Positions 12,930 through 20,199 of a stretch of DNA of 53,823 nt are shown in pieces. The position numbers and the translations under genes were made by a program. The stretch lies in the UHGV virus genome UHGV-0209071; one strand, 5' to 3'. Below the pieces are notes generated by a model, which ran no database searches, was not told the origin of the DNA, and saw only the letters and a program-made list of their open reading frames with translations. Within the stretch, counting starts at the first letter, position 1. Each line of letters opens with the position of its first letter. This stretch comes from a virus.

Positions 12930-13679
12930 ATGAAAAAATTTGTTCGTACCGGGAATGCACTGGAGCGATTTAAAAAACTCATTCCCCCTGGCGTTCAGCC
13001 TAAATTCGGCAGCGTTGATGAATGGCGTGCCTGGCAAGCCGAAGAAGGCCGTAAGCGCTGTGAGGAACTGGAAAAACAAAACCAGCGCGCACGTGCAGAG
13101 AAAATCTTTGGACGTGCAGGAATTCAGGATCTGCACCGCGGCTGCACATTCGCGAACTATCAGGTTGAGTCGGATGGCCAGCGTCGGGCGCTCTCGATGG
13201 CGAAAAGTTATGCGCAGCATTTCGGCTCTGGGTTTGCGAGTTTCGTATTCAGCGGAGCACCGGGCACCGGGAAAAACCATCTGGCGGCAGCAATCGGAAA
13301 TCACCTGCTGGCTGGTGGCCGCTCTGTGCTGGTGGTAACCATTCCGGATCTCATGCTGCGTGTTCGGGAATGTTATGACGGCGGGCAGTCAGAGGCGTCC
13401 TTGCTGGACGATTTGTGCCATGTGGACCTGCTTATTCTGGATGAGGTGGGTATTCAGCGCGGAAGCAGCGGTGAAAAAGTCATCCTGAATCAGGTTATCG
13501 ATCGCCGGCTGTCCTCCATGCGACCTGTCGGCATCCTAACCAACCTGAACTATGAATCGCTGAAGGAAACACTGGGTATGCGGATCCTTGACCGTCTCCA
13601 GATGGACGGCGGTATGTGGGTGAATTTTGAATGGGACAGCTATCGCAAAAACGTGCGCCATTTGCGTGTCGTTAAGTGA
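12930..13679 (+). CDS. DnaC/IstB-like AAA+ helicase loader (YdaV-like)
   Basis: Walker A GAPGTGKNHLAAAIG, Walker B LLILDEVG; 249 aa. Confidence 0.85.
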   Translation: MKKFVRTGNALERFKKLIPPGVQPKFGSVDEWRAWQAEEGRKRCEELEKQNQRARAEKIFGRAGIQDLHRGCTFANYQVESDGQRRALSMAKSYAQHFGSGFASFVFSGAPGTGKNHLAAAIGNHLLAGGRSVLVVTIPDLMLRVRECYDGGQSEASLLDDLCHVDLLILDEVGIQRGSSGEKVILNQVIDRRLSSMRPVGILTNLNYESLKETLGMRILDRLQMDGGMWVNFEWDSYRKNVRHLRVVK

Positions 13680-14255: not shown

Positions 14256-14484
14256 ACAGAACGAAAAATGTATCGCTCAAATTGCTGAGTATATCCCGCG
14301 CGCCTGCCGGGGTATGCAGCTGCAGGAGGCCAAAGCGCGCCTGGAGAAAAAAATTGCGCTCTATATCGATGACAGCTGTGATGCTGCCGTTCTTAATGCG
14401 GCCTTTGCGCCAGCTCTTAACAGCCATACGAGGGAGTCTTTTTTTTCGTGCATCGCAGCGCAGCTGCATGAGGGGGCCAAATGA
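14248..14484 (+). CDS. hypothetical phage protein (78 aa)
   Basis: ATG overlaps previous stop; co-directional. Confidence 0.45.
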   Translation: MFKQNEKCIAQIAEYIPRACRGMQLQEAKARLEKKIALYIDDSCDAAVLNAAFAPALNSHTRESFFSCIAAQLHEGAK

Positions 14485-14529: not shown

Positions 14530-14575
14530 GAACTGTAGGTGAGATGTAACCGGCCCGTCAGAACTGGCGGGCCGG
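14530..14575. promoter_or_regulatory. 18-bp perfect inverted repeat (TGAGATGTAACCGGCCCG / CGGGCCGGTTACATCTCA) with 10-nt loop, no U-tract
   Basis: Read directly; lies at the junction between phage-GC DNA and the low-GC cassette. Confidence 0.6.
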
Positions 14576-14731
14576 TTACATCTCATGCAGTTGCTTGACG
14601 CCATTACACAAAGCGTGTTGGCGTGGCGGGGATACGAGCGCGCGCGACCGCGATATATTGTGTGGAGAACCCAATTGTTGTAATGTAGCAGCAAAATTAT
14701 CCAACTGACTGATAAAGCAGGTAAATGAATA

Positions 14732-15781
14732 ATGGCAATAAATAAACTTAGTTATCAGTGTCTAGAAACAGTTTTTGGTGATATTCCTGCATTTACTTTC
14801 TCTATGAAGGTAAAAGAATTGATCCCCATGTATTACGTTGCTGTTCGAGGGCGAGATAATGAGGAAGGAGCCGTTCAGCGTGTACTTAATAGTAGAAGAA
14901 TAACAAGTATTAAAAAATATGTTCTTGATGGTAATATATTCTTTAGTTCATTTATTTTGAACTGGACGAATGCAGATAAAAAGATTGTAGTTAAAGATGG
15001 TATCATTTCTTTTGATTTTATTCCTGCATCTATTCAGGTTATTGATGGTCAGCATCGATTAGCTGGTTTAGAAGAAGCTATGGAGGAAGATCCTAAAGTT
15101 GGTGAAATGGACATATTAGTTACTTTATGTGAATCATTAACAACGCCACAAGCAGCAAAAATTTTCTTAAATATCAATACAGAACAAAAACCAGTACCTA
15201 AGAGCTTAATTTACGATCTTTTTGGTGAACTCGAAGACGATGAAACGCATGCGATAAATCGTATAACTGACATTGCTCGTGAGCTAAATGATTTAGAGAC
15301 ATCTCCGTTTTATAAGTTAATAAAGTTTCCGGGGTCACCTCGTGGTGTTGGTAATATCGAGTTATCTACTATTGTTCAATCCTTAAAAGAGCATGTTAAG
15401 CCAGCGGGAACATTTGCGAAATATAATATTAGGACATATGATAATCAACGCAATTTGATCATAAACTTCTTCAATGGCATCAAATACTATTACGACAAAG
15501 AAAATATTTGGAATAGCAAAGCTAAGAATCCATTTGTAAAAGCCGCTGGCTTTGCGGGTGCTGTGGATTTCTTGACTGAAAAACTACTTTCACAATGCGT
15601 TGAAAGGAAATCATTTACTGTTGATACAATAAAGTCAATTATTTCGCTAGAGAAATCGACACTTATTACCTGGGATGAATTAAAGAATCATGATGGTAAA
15701 ACAGCAAGGAAAAGAGTGAAGGAATTGCTGGAAGAAAACGTACTGTCATCACTACCGTCTCAGGATGAATATGAATTTTAA
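14732..15781 (+). CDS. DGQHR-domain protein (DndB-like, ParB/Srx-fold) - first gene of low-GC cargo cassette
   Basis: 349 aa; exact motif IDGQHRLAGL (DGQHR) at the position expected for DndB/DGQHR family; strongly AT-rich codon usage versus surrounding prophage. Confidence 0.7.
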   Translation: MAINKLSYQCLETVFGDIPAFTFSMKVKELIPMYYVAVRGRDNEEGAVQRVLNSRRITSIKKYVLDGNIFFSSFILNWTNADKKIVVKDGIISFDFIPASIQVIDGQHRLAGLEEAMEEDPKVGEMDILVTLCESLTTPQAAKIFLNINTEQKPVPKSLIYDLFGELEDDETHAINRITDIARELNDLETSPFYKLIKFPGSPRGVGNIELSTIVQSLKEHVKPAGTFAKYNIRTYDNQRNLIINFFNGIKYYYDKENIWNSKAKNPFVKAAGFAGAVDFLTEKLLSQCVERKSFTVDTIKSIISLEKSTLITWDELKNHDGKTARKRVKELLEENVLSSLPSQDEYEF

Positions 15782-16613
15782 AAGATATCTCTGTCAGGAG
15801 TTTATTGAGGCTGAAGTGGGATGCTCGGATCCCACTCAGTTAGGTCAATATAAAGATAGAATTGATTCGATTCAGTTAAGTGCTAGTAAATTGTCAGACT
15901 TGAAAAATGCTATAAGGACTGACTCGACAGATGTTTTTTACAAAGCATCTGTAAGTTTTTTGGAGTCACTATACAGCCTTAGAAGGGGGCATTCATCATG
16001 GGCCATAATTAAATTATATTATTCCATTTTTTATTCGTTAAGAGCTTTCTTGCTTCTTGAGGGATATTCTATTTTCAAAAATGGAAAAGGGGATATATTT
16101 TTTTTAGAGTGCGTGGAAAATGCTGTACCAATACGTATTTCCACTAATAAAATAAAAGGAGATCACAAAACTACTATTAAGGCCTTTGCTGAGTTATGTA
16201 AATCTCATAAGCTCAATACTAATACAATTGATTCAATTAGTGTTTTTGAGTGGGCTATCCAGTGTAGAGAACTTGTTAATTATAGAAGTTCGTCCTTCAT
16301 TGAGCCTGATTATGGCTATGAAGCAGTGCCAGAAGATTTGAGAGATTTGAATCGCTTGGAAGGACTTTTAGCAAATTATATTAACGACCCATATTATACA
16401 TATTGTTTTCTTGAAGAGCATAGCTTATTAGCAACTGCATCAGTATTAATGAATGAACTGGTTGATATGTTTAGAAATGATGGGGTTGCATTTTTAACTG
16501 ATGAGCGGCATGTTTTTTTAAAAGCTATTATTAAAAAGTCAGGGCTCATGAATATGTCCGTATTGCGAGGGTTGTTTCTTAATGATGCTGACATTTTGAT
16601 TATGGAAGAATAG
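15765..16613 (+). CDS. uncharacterised 282-aa protein, partner of the DGQHR protein (start overlaps upstream gene by 17 nt)
   Basis: ORF in same AT-rich island, overlapping upstream stop (operon); no recognisable catalytic motif. Confidence 0.6.
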   Translation: MNMNFKRYLCQEFIEAEVGCSDPTQLGQYKDRIDSIQLSASKLSDLKNAIRTDSTDVFYKASVSFLESLYSLRRGHSSWAIIKLYYSIFYSLRAFLLLEGYSIFKNGKGDIFFLECVENAVPIRISTNKIKGDHKTTIKAFAELCKSHKLNTNTIDSISVFEWAIQCRELVNYRSSSFIEPDYGYEAVPEDLRDLNRLEGLLANYINDPYYTYCFLEEHSLLATASVLMNELVDMFRNDGVAFLTDERHVFLKAIIKKSGLMNMSVLRGLFLNDADILIMEE

Positions 16614-16620
16614 AGGTGCT

Positions 16621-16660
16621 ATGGCACATTAAGTGCCATAGTTGTATTCTTGATTAAAAG
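16621..16660 (+). terminator. hairpin terminator after cassette (CTATGGCAC-attaa-GTGCCATAG + T-rich tail)
   Basis: 9-bp perfect stem directly after stop of gene 2 followed by TTGTATTCTTGATT. Confidence 0.5.
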
Positions 16661-16665
16661 TTTGG

Positions 16666-17169
16666 TTAACATGAAGTATAAGATTCAAAACTAATAACAT
16701 CCTCGCCTAACCATTCGTTAAGTTCCTTTAATCGTTTTTGCAGTGGAACTAACTCATTGCGTACAAAAACACTGCTGGCCTTTTCAACATCACCAAAACC
16801 TCCTACGTTATTAGGCATAATTCCCATCATCTGTGGTGGCACGCGGTGCGCTGCCATCATATCATCCCGGCTGACGTTCTTGATATTCAGAAATTCATCA
16901 TTCGCCGCGATCTCTGACAGCGGTATTATCTGGATGCCGTCCTTTTTACCACTGGGTGAGTGCATAAACAGGTTACGGAAGTTGCCCGGTATCTTGGCGC
17001 TTTTCATGGCCTGGCGGATATTGTTTACGTCCCCCCAGCTCTGCGCTGCGCCGGTCATGTACATGATAAAACCCGCTTCGGCGGGTTTTTTATTATGGAA
17101 AAACATCAATCTAAACATAAGCATGGTGTTGGCAAAAAGTGCTGCAGAGGGGTTGAACATTTCATGCAA
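16666..17169 (-). pseudogene. 3' fragment of a PBSX/P2 gpQ-family phage portal gene (about 165 codons, no credible N-terminus)
   Basis: Translation contains portal C-terminal signature ...DDMMAAHRVPPQMMGIMPNNVGGFGDVEKASSVFVRNELVPLQKRLKELNEWLG...; the prophage has its own complete portal at 27560-28960, so this is an extra, truncated copy. Confidence 0.6.
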
Positions 17170-17193
17170 CCGGTATACTGTATATTTATACAG
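17152..17193 (+). promoter_or_regulatory. SOS-regulated promoter of dinI: TTGAAC(17152-17157)-16-TATACT(17174-17179) overlapping a perfect LexA box TACTGTATATTTATACAGTA (CTGT-N8-ACAG at 17178-17193)
   Basis: Direct match to LexA consensus CTGT(N8)ACAG with AT-rich centre; 22 nt upstream of dinI ATG with GAGGTG RBS. Confidence 0.8.
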
Positions 17194-17215
17194 TATCTGT
17201 GTGAGGTGCTAACCA

Positions 17216-17448
17216 TGAAAGTTGAAGTCACAATTGATAAACATAAAAAACTCCCTGATGGTGCCATACCTGCGCTTGAGCAAGAATTGCTGCGCCGCTT
17301 GTCCCAGTCTTATGATGACTACAAATTAACCATTCGACGCACAAGCAACGATGGTCTTAGCGTTTTGGGCGGCGCTGATGGCGATAAAAAACGCGTTGAG
17401 CAAATCCTGCAAGAGACGTGGGAAAGCGCGGACGACTGGTTTTACTGA
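17216..17448 (+). CDS. dinI: DinI-family DNA-damage-inducible protein (77 aa)
   Basis: MKVEVTIDK...AIPALEQELLRRL...LSVLGGADGDKKRVEQILQETWESADDWFY closely parallels E. coli DinI. Confidence 0.85.
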
Positions 17449-19262: not shown

Positions 19263-19380
19263 CCCTCGATCACTTCATGCAGTACCAAACCGAGAGCGTT
19301 AAGCGCGCCAGTATGCCGCCAGTAGCAAAGCACAACCTGAACCAGACCAAACCAAAACAGCCAAAGAGGGCCGCAGCGTG
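19259..19380 (+). CDS. possible 40-aa bridging ORF (MTLDHFMQYQTESVKRASMPPVAKHNLNQTKPKQPKRAAA)
   Basis: ATGA overlap with rusA stop and GTGA overlap with Q-like start; could be real coupled small protein or chance. Confidence 0.25.
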
Positions 19381-20199
19381 AATCTTGAAAACACAGTGAA
19401 ATACCACTTCGCAAAATCCACGCTGATTAGCGATTCTCCGCGTGCTACCGCCTCTGATTCACTGACCGGCACCGACATCATGGCAGCAATGGGCATGACC
19501 CAGGAACGTGCCGCTATGGGGTATAGCGCTTTCCTGGGCAAGATGGGCATAAGCAACAATGACCGGGATCGGGCTATCGGACTATTGGCTGAGTACGCGC
19601 TGACAAAATGCGATAAGGTTGCTGCGTTGCGAAAGCTCTCGCCAAGCGTAAAACCCCGGGTTATACGGATCCTCGCAGAGTACGCCTTTGAGGATTACTC
19701 CCGCAGTGCTTCCAGTAAAAAAACATGCGACTGCTGCAATGGGTCTGGATTCATCGACGCAGTGGCGTTCACCAACAAAGTAACGTATCCGGACGGCAAA
19801 CCGCCGAAGTGGGTCAAAGTTACAAAGGGGATCTATCCATCATACTGGGAGGAGGTAAAGTCGGTCCGGGAGCAGGTCCGGGTGCTTTGCCAAAAGTGCA
19901 AGGGAAAAGGGACTGTTAGCGCCGCCTGTAACGACTGCCACGGTCGGGGGAAGGTAGTGAACCAGGATGAGACGGAGAAGCAGGGAGTGCCTGTGATGGG
20001 TAACTGTAAACGCTGTGGTGGTCGCGGGTATGAGCGAATCCTCTCCACTGCTGTGCATAGGGCCATTTGCCAGATAACGGACGCCATCACTCTGGATACC
20101 TGGAAGAAATCGGTTAAACCGTTCTTCGACGTATTGATCACTAAATTCGATATAGAGGAAGCGTGGGCAGAGGCGCAACTCAAACAAATAACGCGGTGA
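19378..20199 (+). CDS. late-gene antiterminator Q-like protein with four DnaJ-type CxxCxGxG zinc-finger repeats
   Basis: GTG start with AGAGGG RBS; position between rusA and tRNA/lysis genes; motifs CDCCNGSG, CQKCKGKG, CNDCHGRG, CKRCGGRG. Confidence 0.5.
   Translation: MNLENTVKYHFAKSTLISDSPRATASDSLTGTDIMAAMGMTQERAAMGYSAFLGKMGISNNDRDRAIGLLAEYALTKCDKVAALRKLSPSVKPRVIRILAEYAFEDYSRSASSKKTCDCCNGSGFIDAVAFTNKVTYPDGKPPKWVKVTKGIYPSYWEEVKSVREQVRVLCQKCKGKGTVSAACNDCHGRGKVVNQDETEKQGVPVMGNCKRCGGRGYERILSTAVHRAICQITDAITLDTWKKSVKPFFDVLITKFDIEEAWAEAQLKQITR

Follow-up and report, generated by a model that had tools for sequence, protein, structure and literature searches.

The virus genome UHGV-0209071, a stretch of 53,823 nucleotides (nt) that is referred to here as the window, carries two overlapping genes on an AT-rich island at 14732-16613. 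A preliminary description of this DNA, made from the letters alone, had pointed out both the island and its genes, and both are readily recovered: the G+C content is 0.30-0.37 over 14750-16700, as against about 0.50-0.57 on both flanks, and two open reading frames (ORFs), called gene A and gene B below, fill the interval.

Gene A, 14732-15781, + strand: 349-amino-acid (aa) DGQHR-domain protein with an N-terminal ParB/Srx (ParB-CTPase) fold and a C-terminal helical domain without a match
Gene B, 15765-16613, + strand: 282-aa HEPN-fold protein, probably of 280 aa from 15771, whose family is absent from curated libraries

As annotated, the two ORFs overlap by 17 nt. Nearly all homologues of B are 280 aa long and begin with MNF..., which makes the second ATG, at 15771, the more probable start; the overlap is then 11 nt, as in related loci.

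The A and B proteins and their linkage

Gene A is a member of the DGQHR family. Its product scored 110.6 bits against TIGR03187 ("DGQHR domain", cut-off 58.85) and 67.7 against Pfam DndB (threshold 29.1), and it carries the motif VIDGQHRLAGL at residues 103-113. An AlphaFold2 (AF2) model was obtained with a predicted local distance difference test (pLDDT) score of 84.8, and Foldseek matched the N-terminal domain to ParB-CTPgammaS, Noc, and sulfiredoxin, which places it in the ParB/sulfiredoxin fold. The initial assignment of the first gene to the DGQHR proteins, as a DndB-like protein of the ParB/Srx type, is thus borne out by motif, profiles, and fold. SspE and BrxU were also among its structural neighbours. 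The C-terminal helical domain found no match in the structure search, and in particular none to HEPN; HNH/DUF1524 was not detected, GmrSD_N appeared only at E 0.065 and without GmrSD_C, and comparison with the PDB by sequence returned nothing.

The family of A is large, with more than 1200 matches; its members from alpha-, beta-, gamma-, and deltaproteobacteria share about 60% identity, and 72 columns are invariant among 49 aligned sequences. The exact gene A protein is present on at least 1000 contigs, whose sources name Klebsiella pneumoniae. In one Klebsiella locus (L008, 8961-10011), gene A is broken into ORFs of 85 aa and 270 aa by an apparent frameshift, and the protein clusters include many partial Klebsiella copies. 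These may reflect decay of the cassette in some strains, or they may be assembly artefacts.

For the second protein, no recognisable domain had been reported. This is correct for the curated sequence libraries, since no family in Pfam, NCBIfam, PHROG, or PADLOC reached its threshold, and comparison with the PDB by sequence gave chance matches only. It does not hold for the predicted structure, however, in which B has the helical-bundle fold of HEPN proteins. Its nearest structures are small HEPN proteins, including AMPylated HepT (2hsb, 4nqf, 1ufb, 8xdj, 7ae2, and 5yep), and MtlR is a further structural neighbour. In the model, B is about twice the size of these small HEPN proteins, with a beta-hairpin insert and a C-terminal helical extension of about 100 aa.

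An exhaustive HMMER search with B returned 503 cluster representatives, all of about 250-285 aa, where clusters (about 500) are defined at 50% identity. Conservation was computed on 180 sequences with a median identity of 28% to the window protein. W79, Y86, R168, and Y173 are conserved in all of them, and D53 (98%), H134 (99%), Y85, W163, and Y90 in 96-99%, while the most variable part is formed by the last 100 residues, beyond residue 180. That a set of R, H, Y, and D residues stays invariant at 20-30% identity suggests catalysis over scaffolding, and B is probably a divergent HEPN protein that has retained catalysis.

The two genes are strictly linked. When genomes were searched with B only, 21 loci were found, and in 21 of 21 a homologue of A lay directly upstream and ended just inside B. 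These loci span six phyla (Proteobacteria, Bacteroidota, Firmicutes, Cyanobacteria, Ignavibacteriota, and Patescibacteria), and the same A-B layout was seen in Aeromonas and Azospirillum. Among 50,697 phage records, no tblastn match to B was found, and in plasmids B was seen only in Ralstonia megaplasmids, at 29% identity. At the DNA level, the E. coli version of the cassette was absent from 5,426 complete E. coli genomes.

The P2-type block and its lambdoid host

Similarity between the window and lambdoid Klebsiella phages breaks off at 14484 and resumes at 17062, which identifies the cassette as an insertion in the nin region. The features of this region are as follows:

P2/186-family block, 14552-17076, no strand assigned: in order, right-end hairpin, cos, A, B, terminator, and 3' portal Q remnant
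Long hairpin, 14540-14585: arms 14540-14561 and 14564-14585, 22 nt each and 95% complementary, found by inverted-repeat search
P2-family cos cohesive-end sequence, 14620-14638, + strand: GGCGTGGCGGGGATACGAG, then GCGCGC, with both sides conserved
Terminator-like hairpin, 16618-16642, between the convergent stops of B and the Q remnant: 10-bp stem, 5-nt loop, and T-rich tail
3' remnant of the P2-type portal gene Q, 16666-17076, - strand: about 137 codons, the open frame continuing to 17169
Lambdoid flank, upstream: IstB/DnaC-like loader, 12930-13679
Lambdoid flank, downstream: DinI, 17215-17448; DUF1367; YbcO; RusA; antiterminator Q, 19378-20199

The block aligned to P2/186-like prophage loci of Salmonella (L045-L047, 5781-8306) in a single collinear blastn alignment of 2528 columns at 88% identity, which stops exactly at 14552 and 17076 of the window. 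In these Salmonella loci the order is gpA, DinI, variable genes, the A+B pair, 52 nt, a full-length portal gene of 344 aa, and then terminase and capsid genes. P2-like prophages of E. coli (L003-L006) share this layout, and the spacing between the stop of B and the stop of Q is 52 nt, identical to that in the window. A second Klebsiella lambdoid prophage (L007) carries the block at 96% identity, with a decayed Q remnant. Taken with the lambdoid flanks, these alignments indicate that about 2.5 kb of a P2-like phage entered the nin region of a lambdoid prophage of Klebsiella by recombination, in agreement with the earlier suggestion that P2 hotspot cargo and its flank had moved into such a host.

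Several other features were observed around the block. At 17068-17089, exactly at the right junction of the block and still within the frame left open by the portal remnant, is a second terminator-like hairpin, AAAACCCGCTTCGGCGGGTTTT followed by Ts, which may indicate where recombination occurred or may stop read-through into DinI. Just 5' of DinI, at 17176-17195, is a near-consensus LexA box, TACTGTATATTTATACAGTA (CTGT-N8-ACAG), and DinI is probably SOS-regulated. In the second Klebsiella prophage (L007, 11662-15407), a tailspike-like gene (Gp34_trimer/Peptidase_S74), a pyocin-S-type bacteriocin, and an immunity gene follow 3' of the cassette, all within the nin region, which appears to collect diverse cargo in these prophages. 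In one of the E. coli P2-like loci (L003, 6956-8522), an IS256-family transposase (Transposase_mut) and a small acetyltransferase occupy the interval from DinI to cos, left of the cassette.

Both hairpins named in the preliminary description, the one upstream of the cassette (14540-14585) and the terminator downstream of it (16618-16642), are present. The inner part of the upstream hairpin corresponds to a hairpin that P2-family genomes conserve at their right end, some 60 nt to the left of cos, and its core, GGCCCG.CAG..TGGCGGGC, aligns with the E. coli P2-like loci and the right end of 186.

Aligning the related loci also revealed a conserved sequence, GGCGTGGCGGGGATACGAGCGCGCGC, at 14620-14645 of the window. 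It aligns with the annotated cosL of P2 (AF063097 1-19, GGCGAGGCGGGGAAAGCAC) and with cos of 186 (U32222 1-19, GGCGTGGCGGGGAAAGCAT), the first 13 of 19 positions being identical to 186 along with the GCGCGC that follows. The right-end sequences of P2 and 186 align with the stretch to its left, in which the inner part of the hairpin lies. These alignments to cohesive ends and right ends together show that the block carries a P2-family cos. No match came from a pattern search with the P2 or 186 cos 19-mer at a tolerance of 3 mismatches; relative to 186, the sequence here has 4 differences. The same cos sequence is present in the E. coli and Salmonella P2-like prophages, and the homologous cos region was found in 1272 of 5426 complete E. 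coli genomes. The transplanted cos could in principle serve a P2-type terminase as a site of recognition and packaging, as is the case in P4 satellites.

This cos had been missed previously, and the variable slot had been placed across cos from Q. That placement has to be corrected: with cos at 14620-14638, the cassette is bounded by cos on one side and by the 3' end of Q on the other. The terminator-like hairpin at 16618-16642 sits at the position of tQ/tW in P2/186, whose annotations put the terminator just past the portal stop. As for Q itself, a truncated 3' fragment of a P2-type portal gene on the opposite strand had been proposed and was recovered: the ORF at 16666-17169 (- strand) matches TIGR01540 portal_PBSX at 3e-46 over profile positions 160-316 of 320 only, which is the C-terminal half, and phrog_68 at 5e-65. 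At the DNA level, 16684-17076 is 79-82% identical to portal genes of E. coli P2-like prophages, and full-length portals are 341-344 aa (L003 and L045). As homology to Q ends near 17076, about 137 codons are left.

Hotspots, neighbours, and known systems

The interval between gpA and gpQ in P2-like phages has been defined as an anti-phage hotspot (Rousset 2022, PMC9122126). In the E. coli (L003-L006) and Salmonella (L045-L047) prophages, homologues of A and B fill the slot between cos and Q within this interval, and thus lie beside the Q portal and cos of P2-like prophages, the position that the preliminary description had proposed to check. The copy in the window is a transplanted piece of the gpA-gpQ interval, with its cos and Q remnant. 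In P2 and 186, the cos-Q interval is about 170 nt long and holds a terminator only, the pair being absent. In the P2-like prophage of E. coli SHP24 (L010, 2582-4833), a DUF6236 protein is encoded left of cos and a PIN-domain protein in the cos-Q slot. The near-empty slot of P2/186 and the PIN gene of another prophage characterize cos-Q as a variable cargo slot, and within the P2 hotspot it seems, from these comparisons, to form a sub-site of its own.

The pair was also found in the hotspot of P4-like satellites, after primase, psu, and delta (L048-L050). About 800 nt of portal Q lie beside the pair there (L048, 7890-8732; also L049 and L050), a truncation longer than that in the window and independent of it. 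This Q remnant implies that the cassette was transferred from P2 to P4. A 2026 study, however, reported no exchange of defences between P2 and P4.

Defence-type genes accompany the pair outside these hotspots as well. In gut Bacteroidales, it lies in an integrase-bearing element beside a STAND-like ATPase; elsewhere its neighbours are GmrSD and helicases, or a type I HsdR, and a BrnT toxin adjoins it at one locus. We scanned 107 nearest neighbours, three per side in 19 species, with PADLOC at E<=1e-10, counting matches of single proteins to hidden Markov models (HMMs) and not called systems. Among them were matches to MADS mad3, AriA, GajB, a type III restriction endonuclease (REase), HEC-02A/B, MzaA, IetA, a type I S subunit, and several PDC families, and Pfam identified 5 integrases as well as conjugative-transposon genes. 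Genes for defence usually make up 1-2% of all genes. About a dozen defence-type genes among 107 neighbours is well above this 1-2%, the comparison being with a general share and not with a matched background. A share of 1.5% has been quoted (PMC13434031), which agrees with this range.

The pair had been said to correspond to no system that could be named, and the searches made here agree with this. Against PADLOC-DB v2.0.0, A matched only DpdB and DndB, both weakly, and B matched nothing at E<=1, so that its v2 models include none for the partner of A. In a full-text literature search, no paper describing or naming the pair was found, and public records label B "hypothetical protein" throughout. 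The closest precedent is an arrangement listed as "DndB + hypothetical" in the P2 hotspot (Rousset 2022, Table S5A), which has the same architecture as A+B and was recorded, likewise for P2-like prophages of E. coli, between gpA and gpQ. It is very probably the pair of L003-L006. The main text of that paper (PMC9122126) describes no test of it, and no record of its cloning or testing was found in the literature.

Among characterized systems, lactococcal AbiU (AbiU1 and AbiU2) is a two-gene abortive-infection locus that likewise combines a ParB-like with a HEPN protein. The AbiU proteins differ in size from A and B. AbiU1 has been placed in the AbiU1/AIPR/COG1479 group, which has a ParB-superfamily domain (PMC3632139), and AbiU2 is listed as a HEPN family (PMC3710099). 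However, neither A nor B matches AIPR, HEPN_AbiU2, or the PADLOC Abi models at E<=1.

DndB and DpdB share with A the DGQHR ParB-like domain family (TIGR03187); in published descriptions, DndB is a regulator whose binding to DNA is modulated by ATP, and DpdB a ParB-like ATPase. We rejected both as identities for A. For DndB, the scores were 33.7 bits against a cut-off of 328 (TIGR03233) and 87 against 450 (TIGR04172, DGQHR_dnd_1), and for DpdB 51.1 against 300 (NF041060). None of dndCDE, dpdA, or tgt was found among the called neighbours of the pair in the window or in the related loci examined, and the invariable partner of A is instead a HEPN-fold protein. The C-terminal domain of A also gave no HEPN match, unlike what has been stated for DndB (PMC3632139).

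In GmrSD, BrxU, and SspE, an N-terminal DGQ(Q/H)R ParB-fold NTPase domain resembling that of A gates a nuclease, but these are single polypeptides with an HNH (DUF1524) DNase, whereas A+B has a separate HEPN-fold partner and no HNH. HepT/MntA and small HEPN proteins of PF05168 provide the nearest structures to B and resemble the pair in their overlapping two-gene operon and conserved R, H, and Y. They differ in having a minimal nucleotidyltransferase as partner and the motif Rx4HxY, where the pair has a ParB-fold partner, Rx4Y, and a His on another helix. Finally, Aernus, a P4-hotspot system of a "kinase/nuclease" and a "mannitol repressor" (NAR 2026, PMC13586616), was considered since B has MtlR among its structural neighbours; of the several new P4 systems named in the 2026 P2/P4 study, it was the one that looked similar. 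The first protein of Aernus is, however, of the DUF4365 PD-(D/E)xK / AbiGii kind and not a DGQHR protein, which makes it a different system.

A proposed mechanism and its alternatives

Considering the strict linkage, the folds, and the genomic contexts, it is likely that the pair is a defence or conflict module of some kind. More specifically, we propose that the two genes make up a conflict module that is mobile and complete in itself, most likely an anti-phage system of the abortive-infection or toxin-antitoxin (TA) type, which is carried as cos-proximal cargo of P2-like phages and was recombined here into a lambdoid prophage. We estimate the probability of this reading at roughly 0.55.

How such a module would act can be sketched only tentatively, and we consider the following division of roles possible rather than probable. 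The two proteins would be co-translated from the overlapping genes, by putative translational coupling, and would form a complex. A, with its ParB-CTPase fold and its DGQHR nucleotide-binding motif, would serve as a switch that depends on nucleoside triphosphates (NTPs), senses DNA or nucleotides, and restrains B. Upon phage infection, A would release or activate B, a HEPN nuclease with a putative site formed by the invariant R168-x4-Y173, H134, and D53. B would then cleave RNA, thereby stopping the growth of both phage and host. Comparative-genomic studies have pointed out operons and fusions of ParB and HEPN (PMC3710099, PMC3632139), in SspE and BrxU the nucleases are under the control of DUF262/ParB NTPase domains, and a DndB-like protein binds ATP and GTP (bioRxiv 10.1101/2025.10.10.680097). 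The gating in SspE and BrxU, the ATP-modulated DNA binding of DndB, and the binding of ATP and GTP by the DndB-like protein support A as switch and B as effector. A broader claim would be that the pair represents a widespread anti-phage system, found in about 500 clusters and at least six phyla, in which a ParB-CTPase-fold NTP switch directly controls a new class of HEPN nuclease whose active site has Arg-x4-Tyr and a His from the neighbouring helix in place of Rx4-6H; this we regard as rather unlikely at present.

Several observations weigh against the proposal. Gene B lacks the canonical Rx4-6H motif and has R168-E-L-V-N-Y173 (Rx4Y) in its place, with the invariant H134 on the preceding helix, so that ribonuclease (RNase) activity of B is not assured. 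The sole hint of HEPN in its sequence is a match to Pfam PF05168 of 19.1 bits, below the cut-off of 22; the hint recurs at E<=1 in 28 of 50 members of the B family (best 6e-4), with other HEPN families unmatched. The defence genes detected beside the pair are single-protein HMM matches and not called systems, and the pair may already be catalogued elsewhere. Most directly, in the same proteobacterial loci A is 57-61% identical and B 28-36%, and in the Bacteroidota and Firmicutes loci the values are about 46% and about 32% (loci L011-L031 compared). Such a pattern is more usual when the conserved protein is the effector and the rapidly evolving one the sensor, contrary to the proposed roles; it would fit reversed roles at least as well.

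In that arrangement the defence module would be the same, but A would be a ParB/Srx effector that nicks DNA or hydrolyses and depletes NTPs, and B a non-catalytic HEPN-fold sensor or adaptor for a phage cue. Besides the strong conservation of A and its 72 invariant columns, the divergence of B is greatest beyond residue 180, as is often the case for sensors in an arms race, its Rx4-6H is missing, and nuclease or NTPase effector roles of ParB/Srx proteins have been discussed (PMC10853773, PMC12839542). However, no nuclease domain could be recognised in A beyond the ParB fold, HNH/DUF1524 included, and the invariant R, H, Y, and D residues of B again suggest catalysis. We therefore judge swapped roles to be improbable, while giving them some weight.

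The structural neighbours of B raise another explanation, namely an addiction module in which B is a HEPN toxin and A a ParB-fold antitoxin, perhaps one that modifies B in a nucleotide-dependent manner as in MntA/HepT, and which stabilises its carrier elements without any anti-phage role. The overlap of the genes is like that of type II/VII TA operons, and B is structurally closest to the small HEPN proteins found in MNT-HEPN modules, AMPylated HepT among them (4nqf, 8xdj, 7ae2, and 5yep). An invariant Tyr is present in the motif region of B, the BrnT toxin adjoins one locus, and the pair is always carried by mobile elements. On the other hand, it fills P2/P4 cargo slots that hold defence systems, and it has no MNT-fold partner. 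Many TA modules are defence systems too, so that this explanation overlaps with the anti-phage module that we propose; as an account of its own, pure addiction seems a little less probable still than a swap of roles.

It is very improbable that the pair serves the life cycle of P2-like phages at cos, for example as a ParB-like factor for partition, packaging, or the binding of DNA ends. The pair does directly adjoin cos, A has the fold of the partition protein ParB, and in about a quarter of P2-like phages this interval holds a partition-like system (PMC9122126). Against this, the pair is also found, across six phyla, at chromosomal sites that do not belong to phages and lie far from any cos; the cos-Q slot of other P2-like prophages holds unrelated cargo such as the PIN protein; P2 and 186 do without the pair; and B was found in 0 of 50,697 phage records. 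Finally, a remnant or accessory of DNA modification, whether Dnd phosphorothioation or Dpd 7-deazaguanine, could be suggested by the matches of A to the DndB and DpdB models, but with scores so far under the equivalog cut-offs, and with no modification genes beside the pair in any locus examined, it is the least credible of all.

We therefore return to the anti-phage module. The pair is, as judged from sequence and predicted structure, a strong and apparently unnamed candidate defence system assembled from known superfamilies. If it protects against phages, it would be a compact (1.9-kb) and broadly distributed addition to the bacterial immune repertoire, it would define a HEPN family held by no curated library, and it would offer a concrete model of the ParB-CTPase fold, which is known to bind CTP, ATP, or GTP, outside chromosome segregation. 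If, in addition, the widespread combination of switch and HEPN class were to hold, it would link the nucleotide-switch mechanism of ParB to RNA-targeting immunity. With the exact gene A protein on so many contigs named K. pneumoniae, the pair could also affect host range in phage therapy. The locus moreover provides a clean, datable case of defence cargo moving among a P2-like phage, a P4-like satellite, and a lambdoid prophage, in which a remnant of the portal gene, and here also cos, is carried along as the footprint of each transfer.

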